Positions 12,101-54,687 of a stretch of DNA of 54,687 nt are shown here, one piece after another. Source of the DNA: a virus. Its lineage: Duplodnaviria; Caudoviricetes. The position numbers were made by a program, and so were the translations under genes. Position 1 is the first letter of the stretch. Each line of letters opens with the position of its first letter. Location: IMG/VR virus record IMGVR_UViG_3300037212_000012, positions 1 to 54,687 of that record. One strand, given 5' to 3'. Under the pieces are notes generated by a model that was given only the letters and a program-made list of their open reading frames with translations, was not told the DNA's origin and made no database searches.

Positions 12101-12976
12101 GGTCATTAAGGCAGACTTGCCTCGACCGCCTAGTTGGGTGGGGTCTAACGAGGGAATCATTTCGTAGGCTTTGGAGTAGACATCCATTGCCTGTTGAGCG
12201 GTTAAGCCAGATTTCTTATAGAGCTCTGTGGTTGACTGAATTGTTTTAGCAACATCAGCAGGGCTATTCATGGTGCCGACTGCCATGTTCATATACTGGT
12301 TTAGCTGGGCATCCGACATCTTCGAGGTATCAATGTTATAGGACCTGAGAAGCCCTAACATCCCATCAACATCGGACGCTGAAGTACCATATTGTCGCCC
12401 TAACTTCAGTGACTGGTCGGTAATGGCAGAAGTCGCAGAGGCCATGTTAGATTGTGTGGTGCCCCCTGACATCGCAGCCCTCGTTGCCGCATCGTTCAGG
12501 TCTGCGTAACCTTGAATATCATTCTGGATGCCAGCATAGATGTCTTCAAGACCTGAGACAACCGCGTCAAAGGCTGCTACTCCCGCGCCTATGGCGGCTC
12601 CCGCCGCGACCATGTCCCACATAGAGCTGCTTGCCCGGTCTGCTCCACTAGCGACTTCATCGAGAGCCGCGGCGTTTTCACCCGCGCTTAAGACGCCTTG
12701 AGCTGCTTCTTCTCCAGCCTGGCCTAAACTCCTAAGACTCTCGGCTCCTGTGTCAGCGGATGCTTGGATTCTGTCGCCTACTTCATCAGCAGAATCCTTG
12801 AGGACTTCAAAATCTGCTATGATTTCATCTGTCGGTAAAGCTAGTTTAGTGCCTTGAAAAGCGTCTTCGATTTCTTGGGCTTTGTCCTCTGCCAGGCTTA
12901 CCGCATCATTTAGAGCATCTTCAAGGTCATCAGTCGTGCCCTTTATCGCGATGCTAACCGAACCGGCGTCAACCAC
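9101..12976 (-). CDS. Tail tape measure protein
   Basis: 1291 aa, Ala/Gly/Ser-rich helical; N-terminal DAGSVSIAIKG; C-terminal YASGG...ALVGEEGEEYVVP typical of TMPs; position in the tail module. Confidence 0.88.
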   Translation of the reverse strand: MVDAGSVSIAIKGTTDDLEDALNDAVSLAEDKAQEIEDAFQGTKLALPTDEIIADFEVLKDSADEVGDRIQASADTGAESLRSLGQAGEEAAQGVLSAGENAAALDEVASGADRASSSMWDMVAAGAAIGAGVAAFDAVVSGLEDIYAGIQNDIQGYADLNDAATRAAMSGGTTQSNMASATSAITDQSLKLGRQYGTSASDVDGMLGLLRSYNIDTSKMSDAQLNQYMNMAVGTMNSPADVAKTIQSTTELYKKSGLTAQQAMDVYSKAYEMIPSLDPTQLGGRGKSALMTMEGSQAVSQSLGGFTGELALLETMKQVAPQAMPNMIGSTLVSFAANLDKSSDAALKSTTSAKGKVTQTVVAAKGIGQYLTGTGLTVSGLQAEGPIKAIQDLYAAQEKTGKDLFTPIFGAGNAGMALSIAQNLPQVYALKAGLEDAAGADTDLGQKTDDLSRALNRGGETFDQMGHEIGKVVAGPAQDWSNWLAGPGYDAFDRFIKKIQSGDIKGALDSLAQDFENYDWSAAGEKAGQNLVSRFASGIDNQDAGALGNALATLLNGALVYVEGVIGAGLNWQDILFGKTPLDSLLKPLETVLGDHSKLAADTMKLNFDEGTIGAIQAIYNFHDSAVGAIAGVIASVEMLADAFSGDLVGAINGASQAAGGFNLIQQGAGTGTGTSQSTSAPQVNQTRFSVAANPNGDKSVLGGPTYVIMDASTGKPMQGAYGSEYASQSAAESGINQYLATHPNDIVNTPAPAPQTNVPAPQTQSASGQSWSDKLGGSEAWLLGKLGMGASAGEDIYKSGDVIPGSGIGGNTGIIQGSGADKVAGTTQGGSTIWSSIWKPAIEGLAASAYNYMEQQDVDLNTRLKSPVGGAGSFTPITTTTKPGMTQYPPATPQPNVYTPKNLADTQVKTDDLGKSIKDMGTASDQASKFAQYDTDAISKLGGMWDKYDSDKVISEDKAAIAADNLKISTDASARALETATIDWSLLIDQLNATLSGAGIPAISTALGNLGSSCSTCGGAAGSCSAQVANASVGFNQLSGVVSDCTGCVMSDFGKWQEAQTDLFRGAYIGASGDKYAAWDQANGYPPVIPARTGSALYDTYAQQGISRESNGQVLNLDTGSYKQQTDAMLKDMSAKSATIKTDADTTPALASANQAVSTINGMSATITVGIDVVGGGGGSAGSNGGGLSNLANYFGHAGDTSVWGSGFTGFTSQYPTYASGGPTPSRATAALVGEEGEEYVVPHGGALIKGGGKPSVIENHYHFDGILIGNIDELANKIAKIQTDNNLNR

Positions 12977-13057
12977 AGAGAAACCTCGCTAACTGAAAAT
13001 AGATGTTATCGGATTTATGTTTTTCCTAAGATAGTAAATTTGATAAGTTTGCGATTC

Positions 13058-13245
13058 ATGGTTCATGAACCGTGAACCATAATTCTTAGATAACCTTAAA
13101 ACAACTATTTATCTTATATCTATCTTAATATTTCCTCTTCCTCGAAGTAAGTGCTATATAGAATTTAGCAAAATCCGGCTAAATTCTTGCAGTTTTGAAC
13201 TCTCTAGTTGGAGAGTCTAATTATGGTTCACGGTTCATGAACCAT
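13058..13245. repeat. Perfect 27-bp inverted repeat flanking an AT-rich spacer (origin-like or operator)
   Basis: ATGGTTCATGAACCGTGAACCATAATT (13058-13084) and its reverse complement (13219-13245); each arm contains the palindrome GGTTCATGAACC. Confidence 0.9.
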
Positions 13246-13674
13246 AGATTTAAGCTCAAGAAGATTCTTTCGGGGATCTAAGCTCGATGGTCGCGCAATT
13301 AAAAAATCGCATTGCTTAACCAGTTTTGAAAAGCTACTCTTCGGCATCTTCATCTTCTTCCTTGCATCTATCGAAAGCATCTTGCCCCCGCTGGCGGCAA
13401 TTAAGAGATGAAGGATGTCAGCCTTATCCTTCAGTTCTGAAGTCGGATCTTTGCGGATAGATCTTGTTAGATTAGCCACAACTTCAGAAACATCAGCTCT
13501 CCACATTTCCAGATGTTCTATGCGCTCGATATATGGTCGATTTGCCGCCTTAATAATCGCTCGAAGCTCTTTGGAATTAATAAGAAAAGCCTGTTCAGTA
13601 TCCGGTACACAATCGGCTTGCTGCGCCGACCCAAAGCCTTTTAAGCTTTCCAGTAATACCTTCTCTTGTATCAT
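13228..13674 (-). CDS. Coiled-coil plus C-terminal winged-helix-like DNA-binding protein
   Basis: KMLSIDARKKMKMPKSSFSKLV...LDPRKNLLEL resembles a MarR-type wHTH; its 3' end overlaps the inverted repeat. Confidence 0.55.
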   Translation of the reverse strand: MIQEKVLLESLKGFGSAQQADCVPDTEQAFLINSKELRAIIKAANRPYIERIEHLEMWRADVSEVVANLTRSIRKDPTSELKDKADILHLLIAASGGKMLSIDARKKMKMPKSSFSKLVKQCDFLIARPSSLDPRKNLLELKSMVHEP

Positions 13675-39226: not shown

Positions 39227-39607
39227 TTAAAGCTTTGCCTGCCAGACAGCCTTATAGTAATCCTCGTTAAGCTCCTTATCTTGAGTAAGTCTGCCTATGA
39301 AAATATAACCTCCGCCGCTTTGATTTTTATACATCCTCCTCCGAAGGTAAATGCTGAATCTATGTTTAGCTACATCCAAATATATCGAGAATATTTCTCT
39401 TGATATAAATGTGCTAAATATGGGAAATTCTCTTGATATAAATGTGCTAAATATGGGAAATTCTCCGAAGAAAGGCAGACAGAAATTAATCCTTCCTTGG
39501 TTTAGGAGTTGATCTTTGATCCTTAACAGTTCATCTTTAACTGTGGGCTCTTCCTGGCAATCTGGTTCTTGTTGGTCGTACATCTGTTGCGCTGATTCGA
39601 AAGACAT
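39227..39607 (-). CDS. Hypothetical protein with in-frame 11-aa duplication
   Basis: EFPIFSTFISR x2; 33-bp tandem repeat at 39395-39465. Confidence 0.55.
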   Translation of the reverse strand: MSFESAQQMYDQQEPDCQEEPTVKDELLRIKDQLLNQGRINFCLPFFGEFPIFSTFISREFPIFSTFISREIFSIYLDVAKHRFSIYLRRRMYKNQSGGGYIFIGRLTQDKELNEDYYKAVWQAKL

Positions 39608-40095: not shown

Positions 40096-40254
40096 CTCAC
40101 AGAGTGTTCTTCGTCGGGCTGTATAAGATCAAGCTTAACCCTTGGTATCTTTTCCATAACCGCTTTTGGTATTTCGATAGTCTCATCCTTTACGGCCTTT
40201 GACCGATTGGCTTTTATTATCATTATCATAAACTCCTTGTCATCTTACTATATC

Positions 40255-40330
40255 ACCAAAGTATTTAAACTTAATGGTAACATTAACATATCAACAACTT
40301 TAAATAGGTTGCTAATGTAATAGAGTATTA
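40255..40330. promoter_or_regulatory. Divergent archaeal promoter region
   Basis: TTTAAATA boxes on both strands (about 40262-40268 minus, about 40298-40305 plus) at the switch between minus and plus gene blocks. Confidence 0.55.
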
Positions 40331-40370
40331 TGCCAGGATAAGAAGCCTGGTAAAAAGGAGATGAAAGACA

Positions 40371-41482
40371 ATGAGAAATCAATACACTGTATTAATGCAA
40401 GTAGGCTGTGATGCCTTCGTTTATGAAAAAGTGATAGCAGCTAACGCCAAAGATGCAAAGGAAATAGCACATAATCAAATAGGGTATGGCGTGGTTTGTG
40501 GTGCGTGGTGGGCTTAATGGATCTCTCATCTTTTACAGGCCCACAGCTCGAAGAGCTTGAGGCGGAGGTACGTGCAGAACTGAACTATCGATATATTGAG
40601 CGTGTCACAGCCAGTGATGACGATTTCAATGGCATGAATCCTTTGTGGTGATCTTATGCACGACGATTTGAAGAAATATCTTGAATCTATTCACTGGAAC
40701 ACAGATAATCAGCTAATGGGCTTGATATTCGCAGACATCACCATAAGGCCCCATGCAGCCCAAAAGTACGCCAGGAAGCTATTAAGGGAGTGTTCATAAT
40801 GAAGTACCTAATCTGGTTCGCGATGGGTCTAAATGTGACCATGAATCTGACAAACCATGTATGCAATGTGGTCTTTCAGAACGTGACATATAACCACACC
40901 ATGACCATGTTAAGCCATAGTGTATTATTGGGGTGGTAAATATGTCTGAGTTTGGAGCTGTTCAAAATCATTTCGATCTTGAAGACTCCATAAAAAGGCA
41001 GACCTCTTTGGAGGACACTTTCGCCAGGCTTTCACGCCAGGACAGAGAGGAAGCCTTTAAGGTAGTACGTGCGAAGGTAGGCCCCAATAAGGCTGTTAGC
41101 TTGAAGGATATGATAGAGGCCCATAAGAAGCTTAAGAAGGTGTCTTAATATGCACAAAACCCATAGATATAATGAGTTTGGTATGCCCATTATTCACACT
41201 AAAGAGGTTTTTGATAGTGGTATCAGCAAGTCTCTTGATGGGCTGAACCCTGGAGAAAAATCTAAGATAATACTTGATGCGTTTAGTGTTATCAAGCGTG
41301 AGAGATTAGGTAAAGTTGTAAGGGAGATCAATGTAGAAGGTGGGGTCTTAAAACTCTGGAAGGGAAAGGAGGGATATACAATTGAGTATAAAAATCGTAG
41401 AATGGGTATAGGACATTGGCACGAAGAGTTGGAAAGCTTGCCCTGGGAACAAGCGAGCAAAAAAATGTTAGAATATTTCTGA
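40371..41482 (+). other. Plus-strand operon of small ORFs (40371-40517, 40517-40651, further short ORFs, 40933-41148, 41150-41482), putative early genes
   Basis: TAATG stop/start coupling and GGAG/GGTG SD motifs; no recognised domains. Confidence 0.55.
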
Positions 41483-41837
41483 TAAGGGTGTGACCAAACC
41501 CAACGGTCTTAAAAATTTTATTTTCTTAGCAATTGCAGAATTTAGCCGTGTAAAATCGTCTGAAGAAATTGTTTTGGGCCTGTTCTTGGGCCTTACAGAA
41601 ATTATAAATCTTGGATTAAATAAATATCGGCGAGTCAATTGGTTATTCTGAGGGCTTGAAGTGTGTATGACTCTTGAACTCGCTGAGATTGCATCCGAGC
41701 AAGCCCAAATCAATATTTAATCCGTTCTTAATATAATACTCAATCTGTTCTATATCCTTTTCTCCGATTATCCTAAAGACTTCGTTGGGGTTGAGTCTAG
41801 TGAACGCCTCAATCTTCGCCTTGCAGCTATATCTCAT

Positions 41838-42024
41838 AGCCGCTTGCTGCGATGGAGAGCCTGTCCATTTTGCGGCCCTCTGCAATAAACATCATTCTAA
41901 GATGAATGGAGAGCGTGAGCGATGGGAGGCAATGCTCCATAAAATCATTGATGAGGTCTATCATGGGCGTTCGTATTACACAAAAGATGAGTGGGCGGCA
42001 TTACATCCGCCCAAGAAATATTAA
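41838..42024 (+). pseudogene. C-terminal remnant of an HNH endonuclease
   Basis: ACCDGEPVHFAALCNKHHSKMNGERERW resembles GCNGKKWALVPLCGSCHTKTNYNKGYW of the intact HNH at 31945; no N-terminal part. Confidence 0.55.
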
Positions 42025-42049
42025 GAATAAAAGAGATTGCGAAAGCGAG

Positions 42050-42190
42050 TTACTTTTTGTTTGCTTTGTTTGCTTCTCTCACAACTTCGCCTGGCTGCCC
42101 TGCATTGCCACCCGTACTTCCACCGCTTCCGCCTCTACCGCCCCCGCCACCTAGTTTCGGGTTGGGTGTCTCTCCTGATGTCCTGCCCAA
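42050..42190 (-). CDS. 46-aa Gly-rich peptide (not in ORF track)
   Basis: TTG start after GAGGTGA; MGRTSGETPNPKLGGGGGRGGSGGSTGGNAGQPGEVVREANKANKK. Confidence 0.6.
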   Translation of the reverse strand: MGRTSGETPNPKLGGGGGRGGSGGSTGGNAGQPGEVVREANKANKK

Positions 42191-42194
42191 ATTA

Positions 42195-43346
42195 TCACCT
42201 CACATTATGATGGTATGCTTGTTGATGTGCTTCTGTCCATAACCAGCCCCGCTCTGAGCAGAGCTTTTCTACATCTTTATTGCCTCCATATACATAAAAT
42301 AGTAGGTCTTTTTCATCCATCTCTGAGTGCTTCAAAGCCTGTTCAAAATCCTGGTGAAGCCATTCAATATTATAATCCTTGGTATATGTATATGTAGCAT
42401 AACATCGATAACCTTTTGGTACGCCCAAAAGGGCAAGGTCGCGATGCCGGGGGGCTACCGCCAAATCGACCCATACATTTAAGCCGTATTCTTGCCAGGT
42501 TCTAGCTAAATATCTCTTGAGATAAATATAATATTGTACTACCGCCCGTCTCATGTTATCGTTCGTGCTGAAATTCGGCTCTATGATAGAAACACATCCC
42601 GTTTTTAAAACCACTAACGGATCATTTAAAATTCCTGTGAATTTATAATCATCAGTATAAAAATGTATTAATCCACCATCTATTCTTTTTGATCTTGCTT
42701 GTGTGCCCCATCGGTTTATAGGGGTGTCAAGCTTTTTGGGTTGCCTTGAGAGCAATAAGGAGGGGATTTCTAACTCGTTATCGCTTGGATAGATCGCGTT
42801 TAGATCTACGGTGTCGGCATTTTCTTCTGATGGGTTTGGACCGGCTTCGAGCGATTCAACTTGCTTGCCGTCTTCGTTCTTCAATTCGCTTAAGCCAATA
42901 ATCGGCTCCAAAGGACGAGTCCACTTCTCCAATTTTAGGGGCTGGAGGGGCTGCAAATCCATGCCAGCCGCTTTCAGGCCGCTTAACTCCTGCGTGATAT
43001 TCGCGTCGTTATATTTACTTAACCTCGATGTCTGATTGTGGGCTATTCGGTAAGCCTTTATCTGTTCAGGAGAAAGGTTTTCTAAGATTAGAGCTAACAC
43101 TTCTGATATTCCCGCCTCCTTCGCTGCAATAATTCTACCGTGCCCCGCGACCACCGATAGATCAGCATCGCAAATAACGATATCTGCAAACCCAAATTCT
43201 TTTATGCTTGCATGAATAGCCTCTAAATCTTTGGCCCCATGTTTTTTGTTATTTAATGGGTACATTTTAAAAGAGTCTATTGGCAGCATCTCTATTCTCT
43301 GCCCGCGTTCCTTCAACTTAATATCGATATCAGATGCCATCAACAA
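42195..43346 (-). CDS. ParB/Srx-like domain fused to DUF4417-like domain
   Basis: SIKEFGF, VAGHGRIIAA, AYRIAHN; IHFYTDDYKF, IIEPNFS, GVPKG, YVYGG. Confidence 0.75.
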   Translation of the reverse strand: MLMASDIDIKLKERGQRIEMLPIDSFKMYPLNNKKHGAKDLEAIHASIKEFGFADIVICDADLSVVAGHGRIIAAKEAGISEVLALILENLSPEQIKAYRIAHNQTSRLSKYNDANITQELSGLKAAGMDLQPLQPLKLEKWTRPLEPIIGLSELKNEDGKQVESLEAGPNPSEENADTVDLNAIYPSDNELEIPSLLLSRQPKKLDTPINRWGTQARSKRIDGGLIHFYTDDYKFTGILNDPLVVLKTGCVSIIEPNFSTNDNMRRAVVQYYIYLKRYLARTWQEYGLNVWVDLAVAPRHRDLALLGVPKGYRCYATYTYTKDYNIEWLHQDFEQALKHSEMDEKDLLFYVYGGNKDVEKLCSERGWLWTEAHQQAYHHNVR

Positions 43347-43395
43347 ACCTTCTCTTTTATCTTTTTCGGAAGCTACCCTAGCCAGCCTTTGTTAA

Positions 43396-43416
43396 TCATA
43401 GGCATTTAACCTATAA
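43396..43416 (-). promoter_or_regulatory. Palindromic operator overlapping TATA box (copy 3 of 5)
   Basis: TCATAGG-CATTTAA-CCTATAA; reads AAAAACC-TTTATA on the minus strand (BRE-TATA). Confidence 0.7.
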
Positions 43417-43440
43417 AGGTTTTTTGTGAGAAGAGAAAGT

Positions 43441-43830
43441 AATGAGGAGGCCAGCCGGTAAATATGGTAAACCCGGCTGGTATGTGTCGATTTGGTGTCT
43501 GGCTAGATGTCGATCTATGTCTGGAGGGTATCGCGGCTTGCTGGTGCACGTTCACGGCCCGCCTCGGGTAATCCTATTCAGGCAAGAACCCCTCAAAGTT
43601 TCCCCGAGTCTTATAGGCCCACCGGCAAGCCGGTCTCAATTCAGGCTATCCTACCGAAGTCCTAAGGACAAGCTCGGATATCCCTCTTATCACAGACAGC
43701 CTCTTATGATTAGCAGAACCGGAGTTTACAGCTCCGGTATTTTGCCTTGCCTATCTGCTGATGGAATCTGTGCTATTTGTCTTCTAAGGCCCTGCTCTCT
43801 CCAGATTGAAGGGCCTTTGATGACTGTGAT
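43441..43830. ncRNA. Candidate large structured RNA, left part (continues at 45065 to about 45360 beyond the IS)
   Basis: Dense nested stems: 43451-58/43473-80, 43563-68/43603-08, 43621-34, 43718-38, 43712-17/43754-59, 43786-93/43810-17, plus long-range 43524-40/43669-86. Confidence 0.55.
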
Positions 43831-45064
43831 GTCAGCTACCAAGGGCTAAAGCACCTTGGCTTGCGGCTGCGCAAAAAGTCGCGCCACAATAGGCTGGCTG
43901 ACTCCAGCCCTAAAAGCTATATTCATAGCAGCGATGTAGTCCGCATCACCAGCGAAGCTGCAAGACTCACATCTAAATTCATCTCTTGTAGGTCTATTCG
44001 CCTTAGCGATATGCCCACAAGACGGACAGGTTCGAGACGTATTTCTAGGATCTACCAAGACCACAGGAACCCCTGCAATCTTAGCCTTGTAGTCCACAAA
44101 CATCCTGAGCAGTCCAAAGTTCCAAGTATGCAAGCTACGACGCTGAGCTTTCCTAACCGTTACTCTGTCTCTAATGCCCTGGAGATCTTCGAGGGCTATA
44201 GACCTGAGAGTGCCTTTAGCTTTCGTAACAAGCTTTTTAGAAATGCAGTGATTAACATCCTTAGAGAATCTAGCCATCCTGCCAGACAACTTCTTAAGAT
44301 GGCGTTTAGCCGATTTAGTTCCTTTGCTTTGGAGTCTGGATTTCAGAGAATCGAACTTCTCTCTGTTGTTGGTGGTCTGTTCACCAGAATGTACTTCACC
44401 ATCAGAATCAACCGCCAGATTCTTTATACCAAGATCTACACCCAAAACGCCTTTAGGATCAAATGGAGTCTCTTCGGATACTTCGACTACAACGCAAAGG
44501 TAGAATATCCCTTTAACAAGTATAAGGTCTACCTGTCCTCTGATCCTATCCATTCTAGCTCTCTGGTAGTCTCCGATCTTGGTAGGGATAACCTGTCTGC
44601 CTTGGAGAGTAGCCATAGAGACTTTGTCAAGCCCCTTCCAAGAGAGAACCCTCTGATCATAAACCAAAGCTCCATCATGACGGAATTGTGGCTTAATGGA
44701 CTTGTCTCTCTTGTATGCTTCACAGACCTTGCGAATAGCAAGAATGGTAAGCTGTGCGGAGAGTCCGAACTTTTCCCTGATAGGATAATATACGGTCTTC
44801 TGAATTTCTATCTTGTTGGCACTATGGATAGCAAAAACAGTCTCCGCTATCTCATTACAAGCTTCGTTAAACCTCTTCATTGTATCGCAAAGCATAGTAT
44901 ATTGCTTTGGAGAGGGGTCAAGCTTTACCAACAACGTTTTAAGCATAGTATTGTGTATATCCTTCAATGGTTATATAGTTATCGCATAGCAACAGTGGGG
45001 TACGCTCCTCCCAGGGCTGAAGCACCTGGGATTCCGCTACCCCTACACCCCGCGTCCCTCTTGA
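43831..45064 (-). mobile_element. TnpB-only IS200/IS605-family element (IS1341-like)
   Basis: Related subterminal hairpins on the minus strand, CCAGGTGCTTCAGCCCTGG (left end) and CCAAGGTGCTTTAGCCCTTGG (right end); right end ...TAGCTGAC; no tnpA. Confidence 0.85.
43846..44967 (-). CDS. tnpB: RNA-guided endonuclease TnpB
   Basis: RuvC GVDLG / ALEDL / DADYIAAMNI; Zn finger TSRTCPSC...CESC; N-terminal KTLLVKLDP. Confidence 0.95.
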   Translation of the reverse strand: MKDIHNTMLKTLLVKLDPSPKQYTMLCDTMKRFNEACNEIAETVFAIHSANKIEIQKTVYYPIREKFGLSAQLTILAIRKVCEAYKRDKSIKPQFRHDGALVYDQRVLSWKGLDKVSMATLQGRQVIPTKIGDYQRARMDRIRGQVDLILVKGIFYLCVVVEVSEETPFDPKGVLGVDLGIKNLAVDSDGEVHSGEQTTNNREKFDSLKSRLQSKGTKSAKRHLKKLSGRMARFSKDVNHCISKKLVTKAKGTLRSIALEDLQGIRDRVTVRKAQRRSLHTWNFGLLRMFVDYKAKIAGVPVVLVDPRNTSRTCPSCGHIAKANRPTRDEFRCESCSFAGDADYIAAMNIAFRAGVSQPIVARLFAQPQAKVL

Positions 45065-45360
45065 TGTGATGAAATGCGATAATCGTCATGGGATGTCCAG
45101 GGTCAACGGGAAGCACCCCAAACGCTCAACGGTCGATTCGTGGCTATACCAAAGAGGTGTATCCTCTCAAGATGATATCAAGGTTGGACCGTCCATCGAA
45201 TACACTCCCGCCGTTCATCTTTGTGTCTCAAGGCACACATCGCGGCGGGTAACTGCTTTGTATGTAGCATCTTTTAGGATTAATCCTTTTCCATCAGATC
45301 ATACCTATTCTTGAAGAAATGAGGCAATCCCGGAAGAGATACGAGCTTCCCACCCTCATC
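45065..45360. ncRNA. Candidate large structured RNA, right part
   Basis: Stems AGAGG/CCTCT (45153-67), CCCGCCG/CGGCGGG (45207-13/45243-49) with an inner hairpin, AGGATTAATCCT; no convincing ORF. Confidence 0.45.
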
Positions 45361-45589
45361 ATAAAGAGATACGATATAGATATCTCCGCAATCGCACTCA
45401 ATTCTGATGGCCTCTTTATCTATTATCGAGAATTCCATCACGCTTAATCATCTCCATCGTCATCGGGCCAGGGCCACGGCATCGGTATTGCGGGATTGGG
45501 TATTTTCATCATTTTGTTAACCTCATTTTTATATTAGCTTGCACTCACTCGCTTGTAGATTTTCTGAGCTTAAATATGGCTGGCATATC

Positions 45590-46135
45590 TCAAATCCTGC
45601 ATTTCTCATTTTGACTTAATGCCTCAGAGGGGCTAGGAGGTGCCGGAACCTTGGGGATTTCATTAAAGATCTCCTCGAAGTAGTAGTTCCTGGTGCTCAA
45701 AAGATCCTTCTTCGTGTCCTCGGCCTGCATCTCAAGTTCGGCCAATTCTCCGTTTAGAATCTCAATCTCTTCATAAACATTATCCAAGGACCTCAAGCCC
45801 CTTTGATAATCGTCATCGCATTTCGTGACCTCCAAAGCGATCTTCTCGGCCTGCTCTCTCGATAGCTCGTAAATCCTGTTCTCGGGGATGTCACGGCAGA
45901 TATGCTCCTCAAATACTTCATCCTCTACCAAGGCCCGGAAGCCATCTTTCCCTATGAGCATTATCTTATCGAGCTTGACCTTCTGACATGGTTGGCAGAA
46001 CTCCAGGCGGTCCACTGGTTCAGCAACGAAATCCCCAATTTCAAAGGCGATTGATCCATATTTAAGCCTGATAGAGGGTAGATGGACTTGAACGGAGCCT
46101 AGCGACTTTTGGCATAGAGCACAATGGCCTATCAT
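45590..46135 (-). CDS. Hypothetical protein with Zn-binding CxxC pairs and coiled coil
   Basis: CALC...CQPC; acidic coiled-coil C-terminus. Confidence 0.55.
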   Translation of the reverse strand: MIGHCALCQKSLGSVQVHLPSIRLKYGSIAFEIGDFVAEPVDRLEFCQPCQKVKLDKIMLIGKDGFRALVEDEVFEEHICRDIPENRIYELSREQAEKIALEVTKCDDDYQRGLRSLDNVYEEIEILNGELAELEMQAEDTKKDLLSTRNYYFEEIFNEIPKVPAPPSPSEALSQNEKCRI

Positions 46136-46172
46136 GCAAGAAACCTTACATAGCGTTGACTGTCAGTGGTTT

Positions 46173-46463
46173 TCACTCGTCTACCTCCATTATGCTGCCC
46201 TTCGTGTCGGTCCTTTGGCCCTGGATCGTGTAAGGCACCAGCTTGATACCGTTCATCACCAAGAGCTTTCTTGTAGCCCTCGGTAGGGTCTTTTCATGCC
46301 CGCCTGCGAGCCTGACCTGCTTGATGCCTGGGTAGTTTCTCACAACATCCAAGAAGTCTGCCACGGTCGGCCTGAAAGCCAGGAATACGGCCTCTGTTGC
46401 GGGTAGCCCTTGGTGGTTCTTTAGCTCTTCTCGACTGCTCAATATTCGCATTTTAATTTTCAT
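46173..46463 (-). CDS. DUF1699-like protein (methanogen family)
   Basis: MRILSSREEL, VFLAFRPT..D, KTLP...LL.M.GIKL, IQGQRTD. Confidence 0.7.
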   Translation of the reverse strand: MKIKMRILSSREELKNHQGLPATEAVFLAFRPTVADFLDVVRNYPGIKQVRLAGGHEKTLPRATRKLLVMNGIKLVPYTIQGQRTDTKGSIMEVDE

Positions 46464-46467
46464 CTAA

Positions 46468-46809
46468 TCACATCTTCTCTAACCGCTTGACAGCTCGGAT
46501 GAAGCCCAAGCCCTTCGGTGTCGTCACATAAAGCCTACTATCTACAAAGTTTAGAAGCTCTTTTCTGATAAGTTCGTCTAAATATGGTATGACAGTTTTA
46601 AAGTTCAAATTGGCCTGATAAACCAGCCTTGTTTTATTTGACGGTTGCACAGCCGCCACCAATATTTCCTTTTCAATCGTCCTGCGGTCTCGCTTTTTCA
46701 CTCTCGGCCCTCCTTTGCCCAGTTCTAACTGAATTGGATCATCGCGTTTGATGTTTAGTTTCATGTTTGTCCTCCCGTTTTTATCATCATAATCTATAAC
46801 CCACCCCAT
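46468..46809 (-). CDS. Archaeal winged-helix transcription regulator (COG3432-like)
   Basis: RDRRTI..EIL...KTRLVYQANLNF...YLDEL...YVTTPKG. Confidence 0.8.
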   Translation of the reverse strand: MGWVIDYDDKNGRTNMKLNIKRDDPIQLELGKGGPRVKKRDRRTIEKEILVAAVQPSNKTRLVYQANLNFKTVIPYLDELIRKELLNFVDSRLYVTTPKGLGFIRAVKRLEKM

Positions 46810-46976
46810 GCAATGCCTAGCTTAATATCGAGCCTAAGCACCGGCCCGAGCACCTTGGCCTTATTCTTTGAGCTTTCGCCATGAACCACAGGACCGCCGC
46901 AGAACTTACATTTTTGATTGGGCGTATCACCAACATAATATCTTGGAACCTTACAACCTACGCAATATCCCATCCT

Positions 46977-47330
46977 TTAGCCCCTAATGCTACTTATCCC
47001 GAAATCTATTTCGTGCCCATCCATCGCGTCCATCCATTCGGTATCTCGATTATGAGACCTGAACATGGATGAATACTCAAACCCTGGAGTTGGCGGGCGG
47101 TGAGCTGCGTAATCGATTCTATATAGGCAATCCCCTATTGAACTGCCGTGATCTAGCCTGAATATATCTTCATGAGTTATTATTTCTTGGCTGTGAAAAT
47201 TACTATCTTTGTCCAATAACATTGATATCTTTACCTGGGAATGCATTGCCGAATTTCCTGCATTTACCTGGACTGATATAGCCATGCAGGGAGATATCAA
47301 GATCATTATTATAATAAATTCTTTTATCAT
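46977..47330 (-). CDS. Secreted hypothetical protein
   Basis: Signal peptide MIKEFIIIMILISPCMA. Confidence 0.55.
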   Translation of the reverse strand: MIKEFIIIMILISPCMAISVQVNAGNSAMHSQVKISMLLDKDSNFHSQEIITHEDIFRLDHGSSIGDCLYRIDYAAHRPPTPGFEYSSMFRSHNRDTEWMDAMDGHEIDFGISSIRG

Positions 47331-54290: not shown

Positions 54291-54527
54291 TTATTTCAAA
54301 TCTTCCTCTTTTTGTTTCCCAAAACCCGCCACTTCCTTAGTTACTCTATTTGTTATCAGAATTTCATAGGCGGATTCGCCGGTATCCAGTTTCTCTACGT
54401 CTTCAGGTGATAACAGTTTTAATACCGCTTCCCTGAACCTGGCCGGGCATGTGGAGCTGACAATGTAGTTTGGCGGGCCGCTGCTAGGTTTCATTCCGGG
54501 ATTTTTTCTGTGCAAGATCCACCACAT
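54291..54527 (-). CDS. Small hypothetical protein directly after the DUF483-like gene on the circle
   Basis: With one copy of the 64-bp unit the junction reads GAT TAA ATC ATG TGG TGG. Confidence 0.5.
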   Translation of the reverse strand: MWWILHRKNPGMKPSSGPPNYIVSSTCPARFREAVLKLLSPEDVEKLDTGESAYEILITNRVTKEVAGFGKQKEEDLK

Positions 54528-54687
54528 GATTTAATCCGCCTTTGGATCGAACTCGAAGTGTATAACCTGCCGTGTGCAAGATCCACCACATGATTTAATC
54601 CGCCTTTGGATCGAACTCGAAGTGTATAACCTGCCGTGTGCAAGATCCACCACATGATTTAATCCGCCTTTGGATCGAACTCGAAGT
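54510..54687. repeat. 64-bp unit, about 2.8 tandem copies at the window end
   Basis: Copies start at 54510, 54574 and 54638 (partial). Confidence 0.95.

Follow-up and report, generated by a model that had tools for sequence, protein, structure and literature searches.

The locus considered here is a gene-free gap of 1.9 kb in the genome of a tailed virus (Duplodnaviria; Caudoviricetes), IMG/VR record IMGVR_UViG_3300037212_000012, a complete record of 54,687 bp with terminal repeats that was analysed over its whole length (the window). The gap is bordered on one side by a ParB_N/DUF4417 gene (42195-43346) and on the other by a 53-codon open reading frame (ORF; 45280-45441), both on the minus strand, which carries almost all long ORFs of the virus. 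Within the gap lie a tnpB-only insertion sequence (IS) of the IS200/IS605 type, oriented on the minus strand (43831-45060, its left end (LE) being uncertain within 45060-45066), and, in the flank on the low-coordinate side of the IS (hereafter the left flank), a segment of 43485-43684, probably transcribed from the minus strand, that is present as an abundant discrete RNA in peat metatranscriptomes. An earlier note on this DNA had proposed that the two flanks of the IS form one structured non-coding RNA of about 700 nucleotides (nt), interrupted by the IS. The existence of a non-coding RNA is borne out by an abundant contig over the predicted multibranch domain in two metatranscriptomes, but the proposed length and the interruption are not, because the abundant species measures about 190-200 nt as judged from contigs and lies entirely in the left flank, some 150 nt from the IS. 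What deserves attention is more limited than the original proposal, namely an orphan, very abundant RNA of about 190-200 nt beside an IS. The reading that we favour, with about even confidence, is that the virus encodes a discrete and very abundant small RNA, probably on the minus strand, and that the IS sits upstream in the same non-coding region without cutting the mature RNA.

The region 43300-45500 was found in 20 of the 21 sequencing runs listed, six of which are peat metatranscriptomes containing 0.73-0.97 of the words of the stretch. Four RNA runs (X15, X16, X17 and X19) were compared over 42000-47000 as Logan contigs, which are unstranded and carry one depth per contig. In X17, a 192-nt contig covers exactly 43485-43676 at a depth of 2061.1; the neighbouring contigs have depths of 71.5 (43750-44107) and 62.8 (44082-45239), the bins over the ParB_N/DUF4417 gene lie at 0-12 and those to the right at 0-15, and the bin means are exactly reproduced by these contigs. 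In X19, the bin 43503-43669 has a depth of 1123.5, and arithmetic on the adjoining bins fits a contig running from 43485 to about 43684. With a depth of about 50-70 over the tnpB region, of 58-72 in the flanking contigs and of 0-15 over neighbouring genes in these two runs, the small RNA stands at 15-35 times the adjacent tnpB region and at about 100 times or more the neighbouring genes, and its excess over the next contig is 33-fold and 19-fold in two samples that carry different study codes. The peak has the same fixed end, 43485, in both runs, and in X19 Illumina adapter sequence, left as a loose end, abuts this position, indicating that many fragments end there. Since the abundant piece is wholly contained in the left flank, the mature RNA is not interrupted. 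The mapping to metatranscriptomes that had been suggested as a check therefore revealed an RNA, yet with a peak restricted to this part of the left flank and to two of the four runs.

All three informative adapter ends, at 42258 and 46546 in X17 (both in minus-strand genes) and at 43485 in X19, have the first mate on the plus strand. If the libraries are stranded in the customary antisense-first manner, this orientation assigns the small RNA to the minus strand and makes 43485 its 3′ end; we consider the minus strand reasonably probable. In X17 and X19, the right flank (45061-45239) is covered by the same RNA contigs as tnpB (44082-45239 and 44203-45237, respectively), and cover is absent between about 45240 and 45560. 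The tnpB contigs run at least 175 nt past the left end of the IS and at least 80 nt past its right end (RE), where the contigs of the IS region stop beside a hairpin at 43718-43743, at 43744 in X19 and at 43750 in X17. The pattern is compatible with minus-strand transcription beginning near 45240 and passing through the IS toward the small RNA; the IS may then lie inside the primary transcript of the small RNA, and the small RNA would be cut out of that longer transcript. A bacterial-type promoter scan and a count of TATA patterns gave chance levels only, and a bulge-helix-bulge motif, looked for by eye at the two ends of the RNA, was not apparent in that the 4-bp central helix was not seen.

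The abundant piece coincides with a structure that had been predicted independently. Of the nested stems described by the earlier note as dense on both flanks, those of the left flank (43441-43829) fold better than shuffled controls (z -3.3 and -3.4 on the two strands), but the right flank stays within the shuffles (z -1.0 and -1.5), so that the comparison with shuffles that the note had called for came out in favour of one flank only. For reference, ten control values obtained from five coding stretches ranged from -1.9 to +2.0. A different fold, of 43441-43845, gave z -2.2 and -2.3, and the joined flanks gave -3.1 on the plus strand and -2.1 on the minus strand. The left-flank signal is local, residing in three hairpins (z -2.9 to -5.2) and a 99-nt stem-loop at 43534-43632 (z about -3). 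The first hairpin, a perfect G+C-rich one of 8-9 bp with a 14-nt loop at 43452-43481 (z -2.9 and -3.8), adjoins the RNA end at 43485; the second, at 43718-43743 (stem 43718-43738, z -5.2 and -4.1), is followed by ATTTT and looks like a terminator on the plus strand; and the third, an imperfect hairpin with 22-nt arms at 43779-43824 (77% complementary; z -3.3 and -4.4), lies beside the right end of the IS. The stem-loop has a basal 13-bp stem (43534-43546/43620-43632, an inverted repeat that is 92% complementary) and sits inside the multibranch domain 43524-43686, whose proposed closing stem, 43524-43540/43669-43686, was recovered in the minimum-energy folds of the plus strand. For 43530-43636 the scores were -3.0 (plus) and -2.7 (minus), and for 43520-43690 they were -2.1 and -1.8. 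In a genome-wide, G+C-corrected fold scan of 418 windows, the left-flank window ranked 8th on the plus strand and 26th on the minus strand, and three further windows on the minus strand, beginning at 43551, 43681 and 43811 and extending into the region of the omegaRNA (the guide-carrying RNA of TnpB, see below), ranked 5th, 3rd and 6th. Two smaller proposals fared less well: the pairing of ATGAC with GTCAT across the IS is a 5-bp match that carries no weight, and the G(CUUG)C loop, although it does exist on the minus strand, competes with the 13-bp stem. We would picture the RNA as having a core made of the irregular long stem-loop 43534-43632 within the closed domain, followed by a tail of about 40 nt, in which two copies of a 17-18-nt motif can be made out by eye.

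The alternative that survives best, although we hold it to be somewhat unlikely, is that there is no dedicated RNA gene at all. The gap would then be an ordinary regulatory or intergenic region, and the piece a nuclease-resistant remnant, left when read-through transcripts of the IS and its omegaRNA decay or are processed, or else a library artefact. Several observations weigh against a small-RNA gene. The evidence consists of contigs, so that the strand, true ends and level of the RNA are known indirectly; the peak is seen in only two of the four runs, and these, X17 and X19, both date from 2024, share one habitat and one library type, and may belong to one campaign. X15 is flat at about 22, as would be expected of DNA carry-over or of a long merged contig. 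X16 has no contig over 43389-43586, a hole in cover that proves nothing, and its contig 43587-44111 (depth 63.3) comes from the IS and crosses the 43676 end, as read-through would. Structure is found mostly in separate hairpins beside the gene and the IS ends, and the 192-nt piece taken alone folds like shuffles (z -0.1 and -0.7). Of the motifs resembling promoters and terminators, the better ones (the TATA-like box before 43442 and the hairpin with its T-run at 43718-43743) face the plus strand, and no clear TATA box is present on the minus strand upstream of 43676-43686. Three G to T variants, deduced from single contigs at 43536, 43625 and 43632, would each disrupt one pair of the 13-bp stem with no compensating change, though they may be sequencing errors.

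Conservation likewise offers no help to the small-RNA reading. No homologue of the flanks was found, near-identical records aside, among INPHARED phages (blastn with both flanks) or GTDB genomes, nor in IMG/VR when queried with the plus-strand frame discussed below and with a 31-nt exact pattern, and comparison with five Methanothrix genomes at the DNA level returned only matches of 15-33 nt (best E 0.3). The absence of homologues from the collections searched means that neither covariation nor conservation can be adduced. Synteny gave the same picture, since no related flank was reached through the neighbouring 181-aa protein, and none of the 13 loci reached through the DUF4417 gene has a related upstream region. 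The single match to a JGI metagenome (L123) was to a bacterial contig with one shared 10-residue peptide and was set aside as due to chance. Against the idea that no RNA gene exists stand the shared end at 43485 together with the strong excess in both samples, and the coincidence of the piece with the closed domain predicted beforehand. Moreover, a remnant present at 15-35 times the level of its precursor would still be a specially stable RNA.

It could also be that the locus once encoded a single structured RNA of about 560-700 nt, spanning roughly 45240 to 43450 before the IS broke it up, and that the 190-nt piece is just its most stable part; this we regard as unlikely. Such an RNA would account for the X17 and X19 contigs that end at 45239 and 45237, with about 320 nt uncovered beyond, and run unbroken through the IS; the plus-strand score of the joined flanks and the fact that no gene fills the gap would agree with it as well. 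However, the right flank shows no excess structure, the minus-strand score of the joined flanks is modest, and the right flank is covered to the same depth as tnpB, far less than the small RNA. An IS-free copy was not seen, and all five members of the sequence cluster that covers the junction (see below) read into the IS. The search against Rfam that had been suggested matched no family: the region had no match at E up to 10, and the whole virus none at the gathering score. The suggested kinship with giant phage RNAs such as ROOL and GOLLD is not supported in view of this result, of the shuffle-like right flank and of the size of the abundant species. Like the RNA described here, ROOL and GOLLD are phage-borne non-coding RNAs located in gene-free gaps, but they measure about 500-800 nt and have Rfam models.

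A protein-coding explanation was prompted by an open frame of 135 codons on the plus strand (43442-43849), with a possible continuation at 45066-45314, which the earlier note had overlooked when it held, rightly as it turned out, that the flanks lack credible genes. According to this explanation, which we judge very unlikely, the IS has split a gene of about 212 codons that was translated, without a leader, from an ATG at 43442. The frame spans the whole gap between two minus-strand genes, and its openness is unusual: the longest open run of the left flank (133 codons) is matched by 0.9% of 2000 dinucleotide shuffles, and the 205-codon run obtained by joining the flanks with 1234 nt removed is reached by none of 2000. 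A palindromic TATA-like box, spotted by eye at 43410-43419, is a candidate promoter; 27 nt separate it from the ATG, and about 70 nt from the point where the minus-strand gene starts. In addition, one strain variant (P0004) carries an in-frame deletion of 9 nt, located in the loop of the hairpin 43452-43481. On the other hand, the two halves are in frame only if the length of the excised IS equals 1 modulo 3, and with the alignment-based LE at 45060, that is, with 1230 nt removed, the frame ends after 130 codons. A score contrasting sense codons of coding and non-coding frames, which in all of 16 held-out genes gave a positive value and ranked the true frame first, was -0.274 for the left half (the lowest of the six frames) and -0.119 for the right half. 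Purines occupy codon position 1 at frequencies of 0.47 and 0.52, compared with 0.65 in real genes, and Arg, Ser, Pro, Cys and His together make up 39% of the product, as against 19.5% in the proteins of the virus. A word-indexed search of 5.8 billion clusters retrieved only the frame's own cluster and one further entry (P0002), HMMER against 1.84 billion representatives added nothing except P0007, and neither the frame nor the flanks matched Pfam or PHROG. P0007, a protein of 2895 aa matched in nine stretches (E 3.2e-5), was judged to be a spurious, low-complexity chance match to a repeat protein. AlphaFold2 gave the left ORF a mean predicted local distance difference test (pLDDT) score of 36.8 and no confident fold, which is weak evidence because no alignment was available and orphans often fold poorly in that situation. 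A sharp RNA peak inside the frame is also unlike a messenger RNA. The flanks are without coding signature.

That the flanks might constitute a self-splicing intron removing the IS from the transcript, in the manner of an IStron (the fusion of a group I intron with an IS605-type element known from Clostridioides difficile), is scarcely credible, because, apart from the position of an IS200/IS605-type element beside or between structured flanks, nothing at the locus recalls such an element: group I and group II intron models are unmatched at E up to 10, no group I core and no exon halves of an interrupted host gene are present, and none of the four RNA runs has a contig joining the flanks across the IS, with the limit that contigs drop rare forms. 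The two joints listed lie inside the IS and have mismatches.

Returning to the favoured interpretation, we propose that a virus-specific non-coding RNA of about 190-200 nt, with ends at 43485 and at 43676-43684, lies in the gene-free gap described at the outset, that it is processed from a minus-strand precursor, and that a tnpB-only IS has inserted in the same non-coding region at a distance of about 150 nt, leaving the mature RNA uncut. The only guide to its function is analogy with the small stable RNAs of tailed phages, such as the pRNA of phi29, the CI RNA of P4 and the species 1 and 2 RNAs of T4, which are likewise discrete RNAs of about 100-200 nt present far above the surrounding mRNAs; the CI RNA is in addition cut from a longer transcript, as is probably the case here. 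The resemblance does not extend to sequence or to Rfam family, the present host is an archaeon, and no homologue was found. By this analogy the RNA could be a stable trans-acting one that binds a protein or pairs with a target, rather than a giant RNA of the ROOL/GOLLD type. Its complementarity to the rest of the virus does not exceed 12-18 nt. A bolder version, which we put forward tentatively as a possibility, is that a tailed virus of Methanothrix makes a hyper-abundant orphan RNA representing a new kind for archaeal viruses, for instance one that sequesters a protein or counters a defence, and that the leader of this RNA has become the site of a TnpB element derived from the host.

To judge from its genes and elements, the host would be archaeal and of the Methanothrix type, in agreement with the archaeal virus assumed at the outset: the nearest copies of the TnpB are found in Methanothrix, and archaeal Pfam families (DUF1699 and HTH_45) are encoded adjacent to the locus. 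The tailed nature of the virus is marked by a Mu F-like head protein and by the ParB_N/DUF4417 nuclease, which matches PHROG 940. Methanothrix is a major acetoclastic methane producer in peat, and an RNA standing about 100-fold above neighbouring viral transcripts in field metatranscriptomes offers a concrete handle on the dealings between virus and host. Literature searches on archaeal-virus small RNAs and on Methanothrix viruses turned up no paper on an abundant virus-encoded small RNA in them. Few methanogen viruses have been isolated (PMC9796341). The locus further shows an element of a host family fixed in a viral population. The ORF left of the IS has a cluster, at 90% identity, of five members, whose representative occurs on 30 contigs, and the insertion is fixed in what is sampled since all five members read into the IS. 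On the bolder version given above, the TnpB nuclease and its guide RNA would be carried by a non-coding locus that is among the most strongly transcribed in this part of the virus.

The position given to the IS by the earlier note (43831-45064) proved essentially right, because the right end is exact at 43831 and the LE, by alignment, falls within 45060-45066. Relatives of the TnpB were collected from IMG/VR (13) and from GTDB genomes (the best 80 of 103 confirmed, from 148 candidate stretches). Among these best 80 GTDB matches, the closest copies are 88-90% identical in amino acids and occur in metagenome-assembled genomes (MAGs) of Methanothrix/Methanotrichaceae, one Methanothrix chromosome carries five copies of the IS at 80-81%, and more distant copies are carried by bacteria. 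The bacterial members, at 45-82% amino acid identity, include those of a Gracilibacteria MAG, Alicyclobacillus, Streptosporangiaceae, Planctomycetes and Acidobacteriota (loci L032, L049 and L063-L076), and several of them retain the right end GGTAGTTGAC. Across 106 loci compared by blastn, DNA similarity stops by 43827 and 45066, and none matches in the flanks. The right end, whose last base is 43831, is defined by a covarying hairpin (43839-43859 here, on the minus strand) and the terminus GGTAG(T/C)TGAC, after which relatives diverge completely; a scan for this pattern gave 45 matches in 43 of 93 loci, with unrelated flanks. At the other end, five copies from one genome diverge upstream of a TTCAT or ATCAT 5-mer. 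Ungapped alignment puts the first base of the IS at 45060 and the 5-mer ATCAA in the position of the transposon-associated motif (TAM), where seven of eight aligned relatives have TTCAT or ATCAT; an empty site was not found, and the uncertainty within 45060-45066 stems from a 7-nt direct repeat (43825-43831/45065-45071). An LE subterminal hairpin (45010-45030, minus strand) has a loop resembling that of the right-end hairpin, and its stem is altered on both sides among relatives.

The tnpB gene (43846-44967, minus strand) is listed as encoding 373 aa, with a zinc-ribbon TNB domain (PF07282, Cas12f1-like_TNB, 9.3e-21) and a RuvC-like OrfB_IS605 domain (PF01385, 3.8e-11), both exceeding their cut-offs. 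Its true start is likely the ATG at 44946, seven codons after the listed start, as a TATA-like box at 44970-44977, conserved among relatives of the IS, lies 27 nt upstream of this in-frame ATG. The arrangement suggests a leaderless tnpB and, since the box is inside the IS, a promoter of its own in addition to the longer transcript. On the opposite strand, a 402-codon open frame (43861-45069) runs antisense to tnpB and was taken as a shadow frame and not as a gene. Apart from tnpB there is no credible gene within 43831-45066, and tnpA in particular is absent, which fits the non-autonomous tnpB-only subgroup. A 424-nt RNA contig of X16 (depth 10.3, five mismatches) joins 43858-43902 to 44992-45012 across a jump of about 1089 nt, and seems to come from a miniature derivative of a related IS that lacks tnpB and is transcribed in another genome.

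The omegaRNA scaffold is formed by the last 200 nt of the IS (43831-44030, minus strand), which share sequence with the 3′ part of tnpB, reach up to the right end and include its hairpin. It folds into three conserved stems and has compensatory changes at 17 of 27 predicted pairs in 22 sequences. Directly 3′ of the conserved terminus, the flanking nucleotides 43815-43830 (minus strand) constitute the predicted guide, whose length we take to be 16 nt from what is known of TnpB. In its TnpB domains, conserved right-end terminus, copy-specific flanks, LE and right-end hairpins, covarying omegaRNA stems overlapping the 3′ end of tnpB and many Methanothrix copies, the element agrees with ISDra2-type TnpB and the IS1341 group, and it differs in having no tnpA, in residing in a virus genome and in the ATCAA 5-mer at the TAM position. 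Its similarities mark it as an ordinary member of a known family that is common in Methanothrix.

One variant touches the RNA end more closely. P0002, an ORF of 141 aa on a 1252-nt contig, is identical to the plus-strand frame through residue 79 (43678) and then continues with an unrelated sequence in which Arg, Pro, Ala and Gly are frequent. This break is within 2-8 nt of the right end of the abundant RNA contig. The tail had no match in the five Methanothrix genomes, the protein collection, the 123 loci or the window, and P0002 may be either a chimera formed at the RNA end or a second genomic context.

Some further features of the genome may be mentioned. Next to the small-RNA locus, 43431-43440 and 43347-43356 form a 10-nt inverted repeat (90% complementary), and in a minus-strand read-through RNA the former could pair with the purine-rich stretch before the start of the ParB_N/DUF4417 gene and mask its ribosome-binding site. 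Adjoining the other end of that gene is a second gene-poor stretch of about 2 kb (40100-42195) with only short overlapping ORFs on both strands and, at about 41200-41500, a strong G-over-C skew. No tRNA was found by a tRNA scan, and a genome-wide list of short inverted repeats was uninformative. A perfect 33-nt tandem repeat is present in 2.2 copies at 39395-39465. The ends of the record (1-127 and 54509-54687) consist of a perfect 64-nt tandem repeat in 2.0 and 2.8 copies, so that the recorded direct terminal repeat is a tandem array, which may be genuine or may stem from a wrap-around in the assembly. On both strands, folding in the virus is strongest at 12871-13390 (z -3.2 to -4.2 after correction for G+C), an intergenic gap that contains several copies of a palindrome built on TTCATGAA and may serve as an origin, for packaging or as an operator.

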